A stretch of DNA of 64,000 nucleotides, taken from the sequence record MZ234015.1. One strand, written 5' to 3'. Both the position numbers and the translations under genes were made by a program. The notes beneath the pieces were generated by a model. That model did not search any database. It had not been told where the DNA came from and was given only the letters and a program-made list of their open reading frames with translations. Each line of letters begins with the position of its first letter. The first letter of the stretch is position 1. Source of the stretch: Escherichia phage vB_EcoP-101114BS3. Of this stretch, positions 4,395-63,132 are shown piece by piece.

Positions 4395-7300
4395 ATGGCT
4401 AATTTAAAATCGTGGGAAGAAGCTTCCAAAGCTCCTGCGTATCTGAACGCCTCTCCAGAGCAACAGGCTCAAATGAGAGAACAATACAAGGCAGCAGGGG
4501 GCACTATTCCTGAGACTCAACCACAAGAGCAACCACAACAAGAAGAACGAGGTGCTATTGGGGAGTTTGCTCAAGGTGTGTCTAACGCTCTTCAATCAGG
4601 TGGTGCTAACATTGCAGCTAGTGCTGCTAAAGGTTTAGGTGGGCTGGTAGAGATTGGTGAAAACTTAACTGGTTCGGAAACAAGCTATGGTAAGCGCATT
4701 CAAGAGAACTCTAAACAGTTGCTGGAAGAACGCTTATCTAAGATAGAAGATGGTTTTGGTAAAACAGCTGGTCAGTATGCTGGTGTTGCTGCTGATATTG
4801 GTTTGACAGTTGCAAACCCTGCTGTTGCTGCTGCTGTTATCGCAGCTCGTGAAACAGGTCGTGCTTATGCTGATCAAACTCCTAAAGAAGATGAAGATAA
4901 ATCAGTCTTAGATGCTGCTCTTGTTGGTGGTGCTAACTACGCTGCTCAGAAGATCCTTCCGGGCATGACTGGTACAGCTTCTACTACTCTTGGTCGTGTA
5001 GGACAAAGCGTAGCCTCTAACGCAGTTGCTGGTGCTAAGGGTGGTGCTATTGTTGGTGCTGCTGAAGCTCAGAACAAATATGGGGATGACACTACTCTAG
5101 CTAACGTATTAGAAGGGGCTATTGAAGAGGGTGCACTCGGTGCTGCTTATGGTGGGGCGATTGGTGGGGTTCATGGGTTAATAAGCCGTCCTAGCCCTCA
5201 AGTGTTTGATCGTACTCCTGAGCATGTTAAGACTGACATTGCTGCTGAAGATGAGGCTATTCGTAAAGCTGCTAACGCTGATGAACTTCGTGAAGCCTAT
5301 GCTAAAGCTGAGAATGCTAATGCTGCCTCTGCTTTAAACCTTCTGGATGAAAATGGTTTCCGAATCACAGATGCAGTTGCTATGGACTCTCCTGCTGTTC
5401 AGCGTATATTAAATACAGACCAAAGTCGTGCAGAGAAAGCTGCTACGGTTCAGAAAGATAGCTCTAATGTTCCCGGTCTCAATCCTCTCGCTTCTCCTAA
5501 GAAGACTCAAGGTAAAGCTTTTGCTGACAATGAGTACAACCAGAAACAAGCTGTGGCAATGAAAGATGCAATGGCTGACTACACTAAAGATAACACCAAA
5601 GCCCTTACTGATGTTCTAGACAACCTAGACCGAGAGTTAGTAGCTCTGAGAGCAAGTGGTGATTTTACTGGTAGTGCTATTGACATTAAAAACCGTACTC
5701 AAGCTGATCGTGATTTTATTGATGCTTATAAAACTTTTTACAGTGAAGCTAATCGTTTCAAAGCTCGTGATGGTGAAGACCTAAACAACTTCATTGATAA
5801 AGCTACTCAGTTGCAGAAGCTATCTGAAAATGTTTCTCCAGAAATGAAGAAGGCCATTGGTGGATTAAAGAAACTAAAAGGTATGCCTGAAGGTTTTAAC
5901 CCTATCCAAGATGCTTTCACTCTGAATAATACAGCTAAGTTCATGAGTAACCAAGACCGTGGTTGGACCTCTCTGACTGATGACGGTTTTCGTGAAGCTC
6001 CGGCTCCTGTGTTAGTTAAGAATCCTCTCGGTGCAGCCAAGTATGTACTTAACCGCTTTACTTCCGATCGTGCTCGTGCTCAACGTGAGAAGCAACAGTC
6101 AGCTAATAGTGAAGCTATCCGCTCTTTGGCTAGGGCTGATTTAGAAGTACAACGAGCTAGGACTCAGGCTGAAGAAGCAAGAGCAAAAATGGAAGAAGAA
6201 CCAACCACAGAAGACATCAAATTCCGTACTCAAAATGATGCACCTTCCGAACCGGTTCGTGAGGAGCCTTCTGCTACTACTGTGACGGAAGAAATTCCGT
6301 CCTCTCCAGCTCCAACTGAAACACCTCTTACTGCGAGGGATTTGGTTGCTCAAAGACGTGCTCTCCAACAAGCAGAGCTTAGACGTCAAGAAGCTGAAGC
6401 TGCTCAGGCTCAAGAAAGTGCTACACCAGAACCTGAACCACAGCAAGAAGCTCTTACAGCTAGAGAATTAGTAGCTCAGCGTAGGGCTGTAGCAGAGGCT
6501 AAGAAACGTCAAGAGGCAGAAGAAGCAGAACGTGCTAAAGAAGCTCCTGAGGAAGCCGTAGAAGAGCCTAAAGAGAAACCTGAGCCATTACCTGCTCGTG
6601 CTCCTAAAGCTCCTGAGAAGGCTCCTGAGCCTGTTAAACCGTCACTTGGTGTAGAGCGTCTAGCTTCTATGTCAACTGCTGCTCGTCAAGCAACGAAAGA
6701 CCGTGCTGATCGATTTGCTCGTTCTTTGTATTCGGCTGCTGCTAAAGCTAAAGCCACTGCGGAAAATTTCCTTTCTTACAAGGGAGATCCTAAAGAGCTT
6801 ATGCGTCGTATCCGTCAGGAAGACCAAGCAAACAACACACAGCGTCATGAAGAGATGGCTAGAAACCAACTAGCTTCACAGCAAGGCATTGCTTCTGCTA
6901 AATCTCAACATGTTCGTGCTTCTTTTGCTGATTGGGTGAAAGAACGTGGGTTGCCTTCTGATATTGCTACTAAGGCTTTACGGGCTGAAGAGAAAGGTTT
7001 AGGTGGGAACGTCACAAGTCTAGATTCACTGAAGCGAAGAGCTGAGCGTTTATATCAGAAACAAAGAGATGATGAGTTTGACCGTCTCTATCGAGAGGCT
7101 CTGGAAGAGAATAAAGCTTTTGATAAGAGAGATGCTCCTAAACTGGTAGACCAGAAGAAAGAGCTTCAGGATGAAATTGGTGCGTTGCTTGATGCTGAAC
7201 CGTTACGTCCTGCTCAGAAAGATGCTATGCGTAGGATTATGGAAGACTTCGTGGAGAGTAAGTTTAAATCTTCAGAGAAAGCTGGAAGGGTTGAGGCTTT

Positions 7301-8840
7301 GGAAGTTGGTCAGATGAAGGATGTGTGGGATGGGTTTATTAATACCTATAACCGAGAAGTTAACATGTTCAACAAGGCTAACAAGAATTCTCAATACGAA
7401 GCAGCAGCTAAACACTTGCAAGCACGTCAAGAACGTCTTGAGACGCTCCGTAACAGAGCTAAAGCTCGCAGTGATGCTAAGGCAGCCATGGAGGCTGAGA
7501 AGCAGTCCTTGGAGGCTATAGCGGCTCAGAAATCAGAGATAGAGAAGATGTTCAAAGAATTGCCTGAAAGTGTCAGAGAGGCTCAGGAAGGGCGTACTTT
7601 GAAACAGCTTGCTGCTCACCATGATAAGAACTCTCCAGTACCACCAGAGCGTTTCCGTAGTATCATTGAACGTATTCACAACGCTGAGAGTGATTACCTC
7701 GATCGCAAACGTCGTTTGACCGAAGCAGAGGAAGATGCTCGTGAAGCTAAGTGGAATAGGATGTATGAACAGGCTGAGGAAATGAACCGTAAGTTTGATA
7801 TCGATGCTAGAGTGAAGAGAGATAAGGCTCTGAAGGAAGCTCAAGAACGAGAGAATGACTTAATGGCAGTTCAACGTCAGCGTGACGACATTCATAAGCG
7901 TTTGGTCAATACTCTGGAAGAGAAGGGAGTTTCTAGAGAAGATGCTGAAGCATATGCTGGGTCTTATATGGATAATCGGTATGCTTTGTTAGAGAAACCA
8001 ATGACTCCAGTGGAACATCAGAATGCTCGTGCTCGTATCGAATCTGACGTAGAGAAGTTTGTTAAGAAATACGAAACAGCTACTCCAATCGAAAGAGAGA
8101 TTGCTAAAGCAACTGGTGATGCAGATGGGAAACCTTCTGACTTAGATGCAGAAACATTAAAAGCTATCGAAGATGCTCGTAAAGTTGATTCCGATTTTAA
8201 GAAACTCTTAGATGAAGAGAAGGAAATGGAGAAGATTCGTTCAGCTCTACCTGAAGATGAAAGATCTCAGGCGAACTCTGATATTCTGGAAAGTATTAAG
8301 AAACAGGAAGATGATTTTGCTAGCAAAGCAGAGAAAGCTTTTATTGAAGGGAAGGACTTGCAGGAGTTAGCGAGTGTTGCAGAAGTTCTAGATAGGGTTC
8401 ATGGTGCAGACAAGGCTGGTAACAACCGTCGATTTGTACGTGCTCTACAGACTGCTGCCGAGAACAAGAAACGTTATGGGGATAATCCAGTGGCTTGGTT
8501 TAGTGCTGATGATTACTCTGCTATTGCGAAACTTGGTGCTGCTTCGGCAGGTGGTAACAAATCTCGAGCACTTGAGAAAATCTTTGGTTCTACAGCAGAA
8601 CAAGCTAAAGGGAAACTTTTAGGGCGGGATGATGTAGCTAAGATTAGACGTGTGATTGAAGCGAATCCCAATGTTAAGATTCCTTCTTACAAGACAACTA
8701 CTCGACAAGAGTACATGCAGTTCTTGGAGAAGTATAATGACGAGGGAGAGTTGAAAGTCAAACGTGGTTCTCTGTCTGACAAGTTGGAGAGAGGTAAGCG
8801 TCAAGCTAAACTCCGTGTTAGAGTTCGAGCTAAGGAGTAA
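4395..8840 (+). CDS. Large (1481 aa) Ala/Glu/Lys-rich coiled-coil protein, putative internal virion/ejection protein
   Basis: Long uninterrupted ORF with AAGGAGA SD; Gly/Ala-rich N-terminal region, charged helical repeats (TAR[DE]LVAQRRA occurs twice); function inferred from size and position only. Confidence 0.8.
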   Translation: MANLKSWEEASKAPAYLNASPEQQAQMREQYKAAGGTIPETQPQEQPQQEERGAIGEFAQGVSNALQSGGANIAASAAKGLGGLVEIGENLTGSETSYGKRIQENSKQLLEERLSKIEDGFGKTAGQYAGVAADIGLTVANPAVAAAVIAARETGRAYADQTPKEDEDKSVLDAALVGGANYAAQKILPGMTGTASTTLGRVGQSVASNAVAGAKGGAIVGAAEAQNKYGDDTTLANVLEGAIEEGALGAAYGGAIGGVHGLISRPSPQVFDRTPEHVKTDIAAEDEAIRKAANADELREAYAKAENANAASALNLLDENGFRITDAVAMDSPAVQRILNTDQSRAEKAATVQKDSSNVPGLNPLASPKKTQGKAFADNEYNQKQAVAMKDAMADYTKDNTKALTDVLDNLDRELVALRASGDFTGSAIDIKNRTQADRDFIDAYKTFYSEANRFKARDGEDLNNFIDKATQLQKLSENVSPEMKKAIGGLKKLKGMPEGFNPIQDAFTLNNTAKFMSNQDRGWTSLTDDGFREAPAPVLVKNPLGAAKYVLNRFTSDRARAQREKQQSANSEAIRSLARADLEVQRARTQAEEARAKMEEEPTTEDIKFRTQNDAPSEPVREEPSATTVTEEIPSSPAPTETPLTARDLVAQRRALQQAELRRQEAEAAQAQESATPEPEPQQEALTARELVAQRRAVAEAKKRQEAEEAERAKEAPEEAVEEPKEKPEPLPARAPKAPEKAPEPVKPSLGVERLASMSTAARQATKDRADRFARSLYSAAAKAKATAENFLSYKGDPKELMRRIRQEDQANNTQRHEEMARNQLASQQGIASAKSQHVRASFADWVKERGLPSDIATKALRAEEKGLGGNVTSLDSLKRRAERLYQKQRDDEFDRLYREALEENKAFDKRDAPKLVDQKKELQDEIGALLDAEPLRPAQKDAMRRIMEDFVESKFKSSEKAGRVEALEVGQMKDVWDGFINTYNREVNMFNKANKNSQYEAAAKHLQARQERLETLRNRAKARSDAKAAMEAEKQSLEAIAAQKSEIEKMFKELPESVREAQEGRTLKQLAAHHDKNSPVPPERFRSIIERIHNAESDYLDRKRRLTEAEEDAREAKWNRMYEQAEEMNRKFDIDARVKRDKALKEAQERENDLMAVQRQRDDIHKRLVNTLEEKGVSREDAEAYAGSYMDNRYALLEKPMTPVEHQNARARIESDVEKFVKKYETATPIEREIAKATGDADGKPSDLDAETLKAIEDARKVDSDFKKLLDEEKEMEKIRSALPEDERSQANSDILESIKKQEDDFASKAEKAFIEGKDLQELASVAEVLDRVHGADKAGNNRRFVRALQTAAENKKRYGDNPVAWFSADDYSAIAKLGAASAGGNKSRALEKIFGSTAEQAKGKLLGRDDVAKIRRVIEANPNVKIPSYKTTTRQEYMQFLEKYNDEGELKVKRGSLSDKLERGKRQAKLRVRVRAKE

Positions 8841-54453: not shown

Positions 54454-54618
54454 ATGTGGAAATTGAAGATGATTATTCGTCAGATCAAATGTCAACATGA
54501 ATACTACCCGATACGAATATCAAGAGGTGATGAACGATTACACGCTTATTACAAGAGTACATGGAGATGTGCAGACTGTGGTAAGGTGAGGAATAGTAAA
54601 TGGGTGGATAGGCCTTAA
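54454..54618 (+). CDS. Unlisted small zinc-ribbon protein (54 aa)
   Basis: ATG at 54454 preceded by AAGGAA; translation MWKLKMIIRQIKCQHEYYPIRISRGDERLHAYYKSTWRCADCGKVRNSKWVDRP with C..H ... C..C pairs. Confidence 0.4.
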   Translation: MWKLKMIIRQIKCQHEYYPIRISRGDERLHAYYKSTWRCADCGKVRNSKWVDRP

Positions 54619-54740
54619 CATGACATGGCCTTTATGGGTATGCCTTAATGTGGGGTAGCCTTTATGAAGTCCCCTTTACTTCAGCGTACATGGGTTTATA
54701 CATGGGTGGGCCTTTAGATGAGTACGCCTTTATGGGTTGA
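54598..54740 (+). repeat. ATGGGT(A/G/T)-type direct-repeat cluster III with GCCTTTA/GCCTTAA words
   Basis: AAATGGGTGGATAGGCC, TATGGGTATGCC, AATGTGGGGTAGCC, CATGGGTTTATA, CATGGGTGGGCC, TATGGGTTGA in ~140 bp directly upstream of the first gene of the head module. Confidence 0.55.
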
Positions 54741-61442: not shown

Positions 61443-61482
61443 TCGACAAATTTATTTTTAATAGTATAGGAGCTAATATAAC

Positions 61483-62538
61483 ATGGCAAATCCAACTTTA
61501 TTTGTATCTTACGACCAGAATGGTAAAAAACTTTCTTTTGCTAACTGGATTTCTGTCCTGTCTCCGCAAGACACTCCGTTTGTGTCTATGACTGGTAAAG
61601 AGTCTATCAATCAGACTATTTTCAGCTGGCAGACCGATGCTCTGGCGAGCGTAGATGCTAACAACGCCCACGTCGAAGGCTCTCGTGCTGAAGACGGCGA
61701 AATGAAACCGACTGTAATTAAGTCCAACGTTACTCAGATCCTGCGTAAAGTTGTTCGTGTTTCTGATACTGCTAACACCACCGCTAACTACGGTCGTGGT
61801 CGTGAACTGATGTATCAGCTGGAGAAGAAAGGTAAAGAGATTAAACGTGACCTCGAGAAAATCTTGCTGTCCGGTCAGGCTCGTACCGATATTCTGGCAG
61901 ACCAGTATCTGACCAACTCTGCAACTGATCCTGCTGTTGTAGGTCAGAATGATACCTCAGCTGCTCGTAAGACTGGTGCTTTCCAGTTCCTGTGTGCACA
62001 CAATGGTGTTGCTGGTGGTGTTGTTAAGAAAGAAGATGGTCCTGCTGACCCGGATACTGGTGCAGTAACTGTTAAAGTTGCACAGAATGCTTCTAACCCG
62101 ACTACTAACATCGGTTTTGATGAAGCTGATATCTTTGATATGACTCTGCAATTATATACCGCTGGTTCTGAAGCAGACATCATCATGATTAACCCTGCTC
62201 ACGCTAGCATCTTTGCTAAGCTTCAGGAAAACTCTGTTGGCTCTCGTCAGCGTATCTTTGAGAACACCAAACAGTTCATCTATGAAGTTAACAGCATCAC
62301 TGACCCGCTGGGCCAGAGCTATAAAATCATCGTTAACCGTTGGATGCCTGCTGATGCAGTTTACTTCTTCCGCAGCTCTGACTGGACTCAGATGGTTCTT
62401 CGTGCTCCGAAACGTACTGAACTGGCGAAAGATGGTTCTTACGAGAAATGGATGATCGAAATGGAAGTTGGTCTGCGTCACCGCAACCCGTATGCCTCCG
62501 GCGTTCTGTTCACTGCTGCGGGAAAGGTGGCGGCGTAA
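61483..62538 (+). CDS. Major capsid protein (zero-frame product)
   Basis: 351-aa ORF with GGAG SD, after the scaffold gene and before a strong terminator; assignment positional plus frameshift architecture. Confidence 0.65.
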   Translation: MANPTLFVSYDQNGKKLSFANWISVLSPQDTPFVSMTGKESINQTIFSWQTDALASVDANNAHVEGSRAEDGEMKPTVIKSNVTQILRKVVRVSDTANTTANYGRGRELMYQLEKKGKEIKRDLEKILLSGQARTDILADQYLTNSATDPAVVGQNDTSAARKTGAFQFLCAHNGVAGGVVKKEDGPADPDTGAVTVKVAQNASNPTTNIGFDEADIFDMTLQLYTAGSEADIIMINPAHASIFAKLQENSVGSRQRIFENTKQFIYEVNSITDPLGQSYKIIVNRWMPADAVYFFRSSDWTQMVLRAPKRTELAKDGSYEKWMIEMEVGLRHRNPYASGVLFTAAGKVAA

Positions 62539-63062
62539 CAGTAGACAGTGTGACTGTTAGCCCTGCGTCTTTAGCAAGTCTAGAGACAGGGGCTACTCGG
62601 CAGTTCACTGCAAGCGCGGAGAAAAGTGATGGTTCTACCGAAACAACTGGCTTTACTTGGTCAGTGACAGGAGGTGGTTCTATCACTCAGTCGGGTTTGT
62701 ATACTGCTCCGAGTGCGTCTCAATCCACTGATGTATCCATTACTGCAACTTTAGAAGGTGTTTCTGGAACAGCAACCATTTCTGAAATTGTTGCTCCTGC
62801 TCCTACTATTGTAGCTAAGGGTCCAATTACGGGTAAAACTGGTGGTTCCTCCACTAATTTCACTACCATGTTTACTGTAACTAATTCTGCTGCTGCGGAT
62901 TACACGTTTGTTGTAACTCCTACAGAAGCTGGTACAGTAAGTGCAGCTGGTGCGTTAACCTTAGATGCTGCTGCAAGTGGCGAAGTTACTGTTCAAGCAA
63001 GTTTGACAGCTGATCCGTCCATCAATGCAACATGCACTTTTACTGGTGTAACACCTGCTTAA
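61483..63062 (+). CDS. Predicted capsid-Ig-like-domain fusion (join 61483-62526 and 62526-63062 by -1 frameshift)
   Basis: The -1 frame after the heptamer encodes GGGVTVDSVTVSPASLASLETGATRQFTA..., a bacterial Ig-like (BIG2-type) sequence, ending at TAA 63060-63062 just before a terminator. Confidence 0.55.
62520..62526 (+). promoter_or_regulatory. -1 programmed ribosomal frameshift slippery heptamer G_GGA_AAG
   Basis: X_XXY_YYZ heptamer in the capsid zero frame, 4 codons before its stop; the -1 frame stays open for a further 178 codons. Confidence 0.6.
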
Positions 63063-63069
63063 AACTAGA

Positions 63070-63094
63070 CCCTGCCTTCGGGCGGGGTTTTTTC
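63070..63094 (+). terminator. Rho-independent terminator
   Basis: CCCTGCC-TTCG-GGCGGGG hairpin followed by TTTTTT, 8 nt after the stop of the -1 frame ORF. Confidence 0.75.
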
Positions 63095-63121
63095 GTTTTA
63101 AGACCTATACAAGCCAGTGTG

Positions 63122-63132
63122 TAATGTATATT
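63122..63132 (+). promoter_or_regulatory. TAATGTATATT motif, candidate phage promoter element
   Basis: GTGTAATGTATATTC about 42 nt upstream of ATG 63164, directly after the terminator. Confidence 0.35.

Follow-up and report, generated by a model that had tools for sequence, protein, structure and literature searches.

Ribosomal frameshifting in the major capsid gene is already known for the phage group to which this locus belongs, having been published for phiEco32 (2008), SU10, Privateer and YF01. For SU10, the genome paper speaks of a 'potential ribosomal slippage (GGGAAAG)' joining the major head protein to an Ig-like domain, as in phiEco32, and its proteomics table contains entries of 38.5 and 55.4 kDa (PMC4281155). 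Privateer carries the same signal, and its minor capsid protein has been detected by LC-MS/MS (PMC7881722); a passage of that paper also cites the frameshift product as having been observed in phiEco32 and SU10 (PMC7881722). The YF01 paper describes the frameshift in 'YF01 and other group phages' and names SU10 alone as carrying a premature TAG (PMC9965538). The GenBank records of Paul, YF01 and Privateer contain joined CDS features, and a note in the Paul record reads 'Frameshift at GGGAAAG' and likewise cites the PhiEco32 major capsid product (PMID: 18294652). The frameshift is mentioned neither in the genome paper of SU7, which is the closest named relative, nor in the BASEL paper.

More distant systems share parts of this arrangement. 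In T7 and T3 (10A/10B) and in Lactobacillus phage A2 (gp5A/5B), a longer minor subunit of the capsid arises from a −1 shift close to the 3′ end of the major capsid gene, but the capsid families and the slip sites are others, the site of T7 being of the G_GU type, and T7 needs a distant 3′ element. The G/GT shift of phage lambda takes place on E. coli ribosomes at a low-percent level and at an identical G_GGA_AAG, as the initial annotation of the present locus had pointed out, but its product is a tail-assembly chaperone rather than a capsid subunit and is not known to be a virion component. The efficiency of the lambda shift is quoted as about 3.5% in the YF01 paper (PMC9965538). Ig-like domains appended by frameshifting are found on the coat proteins of T3, A2 and Listeria phages (PMC5009743), whereas the extension of T7 is not Ig-like. 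The same review, by Atkins et al., rates G_GGA_AAG as highly shift-prone in E. coli and presents the suggestion that it is a matter of chance whether a mobile Ig module ends up in frame or out of frame (PMC5009743).

The window analysed here is the whole stretch of 64,000 nucleotides from Escherichia phage vB_EcoP-101114BS3 (sequence record MZ234015.1). The 1.8 kb around the capsid–Ig junction are 100% identical to Escherichia phage vB_EcoP-101114UKE3 (MZ234017 / NC_070982; Suseptimavirus, Gordonclarkvirinae), 99.2% identical to SU7 and about 93% identical to SU10 and phiEco32. The ORFs beside the junction match the Pfam families SU10_portal, SU10_MCP and SU10_adaptor, indicating that this region is a head module and that the phage is a prolate podophage of the phiEco32/SU10 type. 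We put the probability that this phage makes a capsid–Ig fusion by programmed −1 ribosomal frameshifting in its major capsid gene at roughly 90%. The transcription unit contains the following features.

61468..61472, + strand: Shine-Dalgarno sequence AGGAG of the capsid gene, read from the sequence, 10 nt 5′ of the ATG.
61483..62538, + strand: zero-frame ORF of the major capsid protein (351 aa, 38.6 kDa; HK97 fold, SU10 type).
62520..62526, + strand: slippery heptamer G_GGA_AAG, codons 346–348 (Ala-Gly-Lys), candidate −1 tandem tRNA slip site.
62520..63062, + strand: −1 frame extension of 180 codons (178 past GGG AAA) plus TAA at 63060–63062.
63067..63100, + strand: intrinsic terminator from the terminator scan, closing the capsid / capsid–Ig transcription unit.

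The capsid ORF matches Pfam SU10_MCP (PF17236) over residues 12–343 with an E value of 2.6e-79 and 267 bits (cut-off 24.1) and falls into PHROG 1328 (major head protein), and its product is 100% identical to the major head protein of vB_EcoP-101114UKE3. The AGGAG is the sole ribosome-binding site for both the capsid protein and the capsid–Ig protein, and the SU7 and Paul records annotate a ribosome-binding site at the homologous place of the capsid gene and leave the Ig ORF without one. The final codons of the capsid ORF are GCT GCG GGA AAG GTG GCG GCG TAA, which places GGGAAAG in the X_XXY_YYZ register, the AAG being the fourth codon ahead of the stop codon TAA at 62536–62538. Rereading and recomputation thus bear out the initial annotation on the register and position of the heptamer, and the same holds for the 178 codons that it described as open in the −1 frame past GGG AAA. 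It had also predicted a capsid species of about 526 aa, and the fusion of capsid residues 1–346 with the extension, in which extension codons 1–2 (GGG AAA) encode Gly347-Lys348, comes to 526 aa and 55.5 kDa with the identical junction ...TAAGK|GGGVTVD. The terminator, which had been placed 8 nt after the end of the −1 ORF, is found by the scan as a 10-pair stem (63067–63090) followed by a T-run, with a G+C core about 8 nt past the −1-frame stop.

As a word, GGGAAAG is not enriched in the window (4 copies versus 7.2 expected), and its occurrence by itself is within chance. The significance of the heptamer comes from its context: the copy at 62520–62526 is the only in-frame X_XXY_YYZ site within the capsid ORF, its GGA is the single one among the 23 Gly codons of the capsid gene (17 GGT, 5 GGC and 1 GGA), and it is conserved in relatives. 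The locus shares the gene, the heptamer, the codons and a Big_2-type extension with phiEco32 (gp11/gp12), SU10 (gp9+10), Paul and YF01; the nucleotide identity of the junction to SU7, phiEco32 and SU10 is 93–99%, and the predicted masses of 38.6 and 55.5 kDa match the sizes reported for SU10. There is no essential difference from these phiEco32-like phages, the extension having 180 codons here as compared with 372–547 codons in EK010, Bas88, YF01 and Paul. Transcriptional slippage is rejected as the origin of the frame change because the site is without a long homopolymer run.

The −1 frame had been described at the outset as encoding a BIG2-type Ig-like sequence, and profile searches and structure prediction agree with this, placing two domains in the extension.

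62541..62780, + strand: Ig-like domain 1 of the Big_2 type, extension residues 8–87 (Pfam Big_2 residues 8–85; AlphaFold2 strands 8–87).
62799..63059, + strand: Ig-like domain 2, extension residues about 94–180 (AlphaFold2 beta-sandwich, pLDDT >96).

The match of extension residues 8–85 to Pfam Big_2 (PF02368) is marginal, with 24.8 bits against a gathering threshold of 22.8, and no single stretch of it passes the cut-off alone. Domain 2 has no match in Pfam, and the extension as a whole corresponds to PHROG 13745 ('Ig domain containing protein'). An AlphaFold2 model built from an alignment of 27 homologues found by database search has a mean pLDDT of 96.2 and consists of two all-beta domains, both Ig-like beta-sandwiches. 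The best PDB match of the model is the tandem Big_2 structure of Leptospira LigA (8gyr; E 8.6e-11, TM 0.54), and further structural matches include many two-Ig-domain structures, among them the Ig-like nozzle domains of SU10. The Big_2 match and the model with a pLDDT of 96 indicate that the −1 ORF is coding, and the extension is, as modelled, a real folded protein with two tandem Ig-like domains.

Conservation of the junction was analysed in a set of 25 distinct sequences from Gordonclarkvirinae, together with that of Proteus phage Privateer, collected from GenBank phages, IMG/VR and metagenomes. A first IMG/VR search for relatives gave 11 loci only, and a 20-mer anchor from the capsid C terminus was then scanned across viral and metagenome contigs. 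Most of the metagenome anchor matches had arisen by chance in unrelated DNA of high G+C content, and these were removed by means of the ...EMEVGLRHRNP context. Every one of the 25 Gordonclarkvirinae junctions, like that of Privateer, contains GGGAAAG without any change. The codons GCG GGA AAG are unchanged throughout the 25 sequences, and 7 of the 10 codons preceding them vary synonymously; in Privateer, GAG (Glu) replaces GCG (Ala) ahead of the slip site, and the heptamer is kept. On these alignments, the slip site is conserved beyond the amino-acid requirement. The −1 frame is open over 171–547 codons in 24 of the 25 relatives, the exception being SU10, in the sequence of which a 1-nt insertion around record position 8420 produces a premature TAG and truncates the −1 frame.

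That SU10 apparently tolerates this truncation, and that Vp_R1 and the first capsid copy of GAP52 are without any extension, would fit a −1 ORF that is an untranslated relic of an out-of-frame Ig module, with a heptamer that merely encodes Ala-Gly-Lys. However, the ORF is otherwise intact despite nucleotide identities of 75–100% and frequent exchange of modules, and its fold prediction is very confident. The synonymous sites of the heptamer are frozen, the heptamer outlasts the Ala-to-Glu change in Privateer, and proteomic detection has been reported for relatives. An untranslated relic is thus the least probable of all the explanations considered here.

A separate decoration protein encoded by an independent gene, starting either at GTG 62550 (170 aa) or at ATG 62448 (204 aa), is what most records annotate, including NC_070982, SU7, phiEco32 and Bas93, and the SU10 cryo-EM paper handles gp10 as a separate protein. 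However, neither start is preceded by a Shine-Dalgarno sequence: its absence at ATG 62448 had been claimed initially and is confirmed, the other in-frame starts are likewise without an SD-like sequence, and the SU7 record gives ribosome-binding sites for the neighbouring genes and none here. Among 22 related genomes, no conserved start codon or Shine-Dalgarno sequence was found in the −1 frame. The position of the first start after the slip site varies by genome (+30, +51, +54, +105, +144 or +186 nt), and GTG 62550, which lies at +30, is GTA or ATA in other clades, where the first start is at +51 to +144. In most relatives, a stop codon separates ATG 62448 from the −1 ORF, which there reaches no more than 60 nt upstream, and in Privateer the −1 frame begins exactly at the heptamer. 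Furthermore, extension residue 8, with which the Big_2 domain starts, is encoded ahead of GTG 62550 and of every other candidate start downstream of the heptamer, and in the local fold of highest stability GTG 62550 is paired. An independent gene would also leave the invariance of the heptamer and the single GGA codon unexplained, and so is very unlikely. A frameshift fusion explains the ORF better, as the initial annotation had argued, in view of the conserved heptamer, the lack of a conserved start or Shine-Dalgarno sequence, and the folded extension.

The stop codon TAA 62536–62538 and GTG 62550 are 12 nt apart, and bacterial translational coupling needs no strong Shine-Dalgarno sequence. 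These two points favour a process in which terminating ribosomes scan 12 nt and restart at GTG 62550, producing a sub-stoichiometric free Ig protein with no frameshifting at all. Against such reinitiation, the GTG is missing in at least four sequence types, in which the nearest start lies 51–105 nt past the slip site and hence within domain 1, and the first start of Privateer is as far away as +186. Conservation at the protein level extends over the codons from the slip site to the GTG (GKGGGVTVDS), and reinitiation is even less probable than an independent gene. The peptide GGGVTVDSVTVSPASLASLETGATR is a predicted tryptic product of the −1 frame that begins at the slip site, 5′ of all the start codons.

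Two mutually exclusive RNA structures are predicted downstream of the slip site.

62532..62562, + strand: hairpin 1, GGC.UAACAGU / ACUGUUAGCC, from the fold, 5–9 nt past the heptamer.
62550..62608, + strand: long bulged hairpin, which encloses a stem-loop at 62567–62587 and excludes hairpin 1.

A weak hairpin, ACAGT-GTG-ACTGT, had been proposed 11 nt downstream of the heptamer; the sequence is present at 62545–62557, but the spacing is wrong and is really 18 nt. In hairpin 1, the upstream copy of ACAGT is used, UAACAGU (62536–62542) pairing with ACUGUUA (62553–62559) across a 10-nt loop. The stability of hairpin 1 is −10 kcal/mol (z −1.8). Some of its stem pairing is lost in Bas93, and since its base pairs hardly vary among the sequences, they carry no information on pairing. 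Hairpin 1 is a possible stimulator with the right spacing but weak, and a classical stimulator 5–9 nt downstream of the slip site is not convincingly supported. No SD-like stimulator was found upstream of the slip site, and Rfam gave no match in the region. To our knowledge, neither a 3′ structure nor a 5′ SD-like stimulator is obligatory for G_GGA_AAG in E. coli. A passage of the SU10 genome paper proposes a different stem-loop, which contains the slip site itself (PMC4281155). This stem-loop, CUGCUGC...GGCGGCG (−14.6 kcal/mol, z −2.0), was set aside as a stimulator because its 5′ arm lies within the ribosome during decoding of the slip site. A pseudoknot between the hairpin-1 loop CAGUG (62546–62550) and CACUG (62606–62610) is confined to the clade of the window, and so it was also rejected as not conserved.

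The long hairpin at 62550–62608 has a stability of −27.6 kcal/mol (z −3.9), which is reached by 1 of 200 shuffles, and it is the RNAalifold consensus, with 98.3% of cells paired in 20 sequences. At three of its pairs, both bases change (62570-62584, 62571-62583 and 62552-62606). The pair 62570/62584 is U-A, G-C or A-U among the sequences, its 5′ change being synonymous in a Ser codon and its 3′ change altering the residue (E/Q, P, L). In the covariation control, the structure slid to −1 scores 0.154 compared with 0.171 for the hairpin itself, and independent events are few; in these alignments, covariation appears to lend modest support to the hairpin. The hairpin starts 23 nt past the slip site, and its basal stem contains GTG 62550. 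That it is a functional RNA element of the frameshift cassette is a tentative and rather doubtful proposal. It could tune frameshifting at an unusual distance by competing with hairpin 1, or alternatively it could hide GTG 62550 and thereby restrict synthesis of the Ig domains to the capsid fusion; it may also be unrelated to frameshifting.

In the mechanism proposed for the frameshift fusion, all ribosomes would start at the capsid ATG 61483, and the majority of them would stop at TAA 62536–62538 to give the 351-aa capsid protein. When GGA occupies the P site and AAG the A site, tRNA-Gly and tRNA-Lys would re-pair by −1 on GGG and AAA in a minority of ribosomes, and the slipped ribosomes would read the −1 frame to 63062, producing a 526-aa protein that consists of the capsid part, a Gly-rich linker and two Big_2-type domains. 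The long form would be co-assembled as a minor capsid subunit, with its Ig domains presumably displayed outward on the surface of the head. The slip site alone is probably enough for this, at an assumed efficiency of a few percent. The SU10 head contains 715 capsid subunits (SU10 cryo-EM study), and a shift of about 3.5% as in lambda G/GT would thus correspond to about 25 Ig-bearing subunits per head.

The SU10 cryo-EM study reports neither an extended capsid band nor Ig density, which counts against the fusion. The −1 frame is truncated in the SU10 sequence, and flexible domains at low occupancy would average out, either of which could account for this absence. As for the SU10 '9+10' mass-spectrometry entry, peptides of the capsid part could dominate it, and the parts of the SU10 proteomics paper considered here report no junction peptide (PMC4281155).

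Among the SU10-type capsids at large, Privateer (Grimontviridae) resembles the present phage in its capsid protein (58% amino-acid identity), in the C-terminal GGGAAAG and in a −1 frame that encodes I-set and Big_2 domains, but it differs in that the heptamer abuts the zero-frame stop, in its unrelated linker and Ig modules and in the Glu ahead of the slip site. In Aeromonas-phage-like contigs (L009-L012), the heptamer at this position is G_GTA_AAG, with two Big_2 domains or an I-set domain in the −1 frame, and a G_GU-type P-site codon has a precedent in T7 gene 10 (PMC5009743). Other sites are C_CCA_AAA, followed in the −1 frame by 215 codons with Ig_3/I-set (L037), and C_CCT_TTC, followed by 120–129 codons (L020, L075 and L103) with He_PIG in L103. 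A_AAA_AAG stands at the same position in L014, and the 44 codons after it are too few for a domain. That the slippery heptamer differs between SU10-type capsids although its position is fixed is possibly a new detail.

Of the two capsid paralogues of Salmonella phage SE131, the second is an in-frame fusion of SU10_MCP and Big_2 with 586 aa. The extension shows weak similarity to the SE131 fusion in BLASTP (E 0.005), indicating that the Ig modules are not orthologous, so that the argument from SE131 concerns shared architecture and not sequence. There are two capsid paralogues in GAP52 and three in tandem in APT65. The capsid genes that are without an extension (GAP52, the first copy of SE131 and Vp_R1) have a G+C-rich inverted repeat and a T-run directly after the stop codon, which were called terminators by eye, without a scan. 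Together, these comparisons of SU10-type capsids show a recurrent requirement of the lineage for a capsid subunit with C-terminal Ig-type domains, provided by frameshifting, in-frame fusion or duplication.

In NC_070982, the capsid and the Ig ORF are annotated as two genes, with GTG 62550 as the start of the latter and without the fusion, and most of roughly 100 sequenced relatives also have a capsid gene and an 'Ig domain containing protein' gene. The start annotated for the second gene is almost certainly an error, and the products would properly be a 351-aa capsid protein and a 526-aa capsid–Ig fusion, a correction that applies to this genome and to many relatives. Nothing in this is conceptually new, the covarying hairpin at 62550–62608 being possibly a new detail, and the comparisons agree with the idea, present in the literature, that phages exchange Ig modules and that frameshifting rescues out-of-frame landings. 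The C-terminal frameshift site is a natural spot for low-copy peptide display, comparable to 10B of T7. The usual proposal for Ig-like domains of phages is weak adherence to glycans of the cell surface or of mucus. These phages are under development against pathogenic E. coli, and their surface Ig-like domains, including those predicted here, are therefore candidates for a role in glycan adherence.

The window Ig ORF (62520-63062), the -1 frame extension of the capsid gene, contains a stable bulged hairpin at window 62550-62608 (-27.6 kcal/mol, z -3.9). Relatives carry compensatory changes in this hairpin at 62570/62584, 62571/62583 and 62552/62606, and the GTG taken by databases as the start of a separate Ig gene is buried inside it. 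Three further features of the window were recorded:

63032-63124: PQC43_gp014, a 30-aa "hypothetical protein" of the RefSeq annotation
43941-44016, minus strand: tRNA-Arg(TCT), one gene, identified with both ARAGORN and Rfam
54605-54737: non-coding stretch with a direct repeat of 35 nt, TGGRTRGGCCTTwA...GCCTTTATGrrt, present in three copies

Since PQC43_gp014 overlaps the last part of the Ig ORF and crosses the terminator hairpin at 63067-63090, it is probably an over-call. The tRNA is the sole RNA family match across the whole window. The repeat copies, spaced by 30 and 68 nt, lie near the ends of the GenBank record; coordinate arithmetic places the record end at about window 54145, and so the window appears to be a linear genome in rotated form.

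Among kuraviruses that are elsewhere very alike (loci L047, L052, L053, L081, L108-L110 and L112-L115), the length of the -1 extension ranges between 180 and about 547 codons, and the initial 30 or so codons past the slip site are kept. This pattern suggests, at the level of sequence comparison, that Ig modules have been gained or exchanged distal to a constant linker and first domain.

The SU10 record has a single additional base, GACACTGTCTACTG vs GACAGTGTGACTG, about 30 nt 3' of the slip site (L003:2620-2662, corresponding to KM044272 about 8390-8432). Owing to this base, the -1 frame reaches a TAG 13 codons on, and the remainder of the Ig ORF past it lies in the zero frame of the capsid. 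Through the same base a hairpin of 11 bp arises that is perfectly paired (-26.5 kcal/mol, z -5.8). It may be a genuine mutation of the laboratory stock or else a sequencing error, and it could explain why Ig density was not seen in the SU10 cryo-EM study, yet the 2014 proteomics list has a 55.4-kDa entry for "9+10", the names of gp9 and gp10 joined (PMC4281155).

The canonical heptamer is absent from the capsid 3' ends (about 4400-4930) of L009-L012, IMG/VR contigs of 82-97 kb that include Aeromonas phage LAh_8 (L012). The terminus reads ...CTG AAG GTA AAG GCG/CCC TAA, with G_GTA_AAG in the place homologous to the slip site and, in L009-L011, a G+C-rich hairpin 6 nt 3' of it. The -1 frame, coding for 92-171 aa, gives either a pair of Big_2 domains (E 9e-35) or one of I-set type, and these loci probably use an unannotated frameshift at a non-canonical G_GU-type site.

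In three relatives, two or three capsid paralogues in tandem take the place of a frameshift:

L016:1485-4261, Salmonella phage SE131: copy 2 is an in-frame SU10_MCP and Big_2 fusion of 586 aa
L018:2492-4629, GAP52: copy 2 has a short C-terminal extension
L019:569-3427, Aeromonas phage APT65: three capsid copies, each of about 310 aa

Distant SU10-type capsids from metagenome loci have differing slippery heptamers, all 3-5 codons ahead of the stop:

L037:10645-11400: C_CCA_AAA, -1 extension of 215 aa, Ig_3/I-set
L020/L075 and L103: C_CCT_TTC, -1 extension of 120-129 aa, with He_PIG in L103
L014:4377-4555: A_AAA_AAG, -1 extension of 44 aa

Judged from these sequences, the position of the predicted shift is kept in SU10-type capsids, and the heptamer and the attached module are replaced over lineages.
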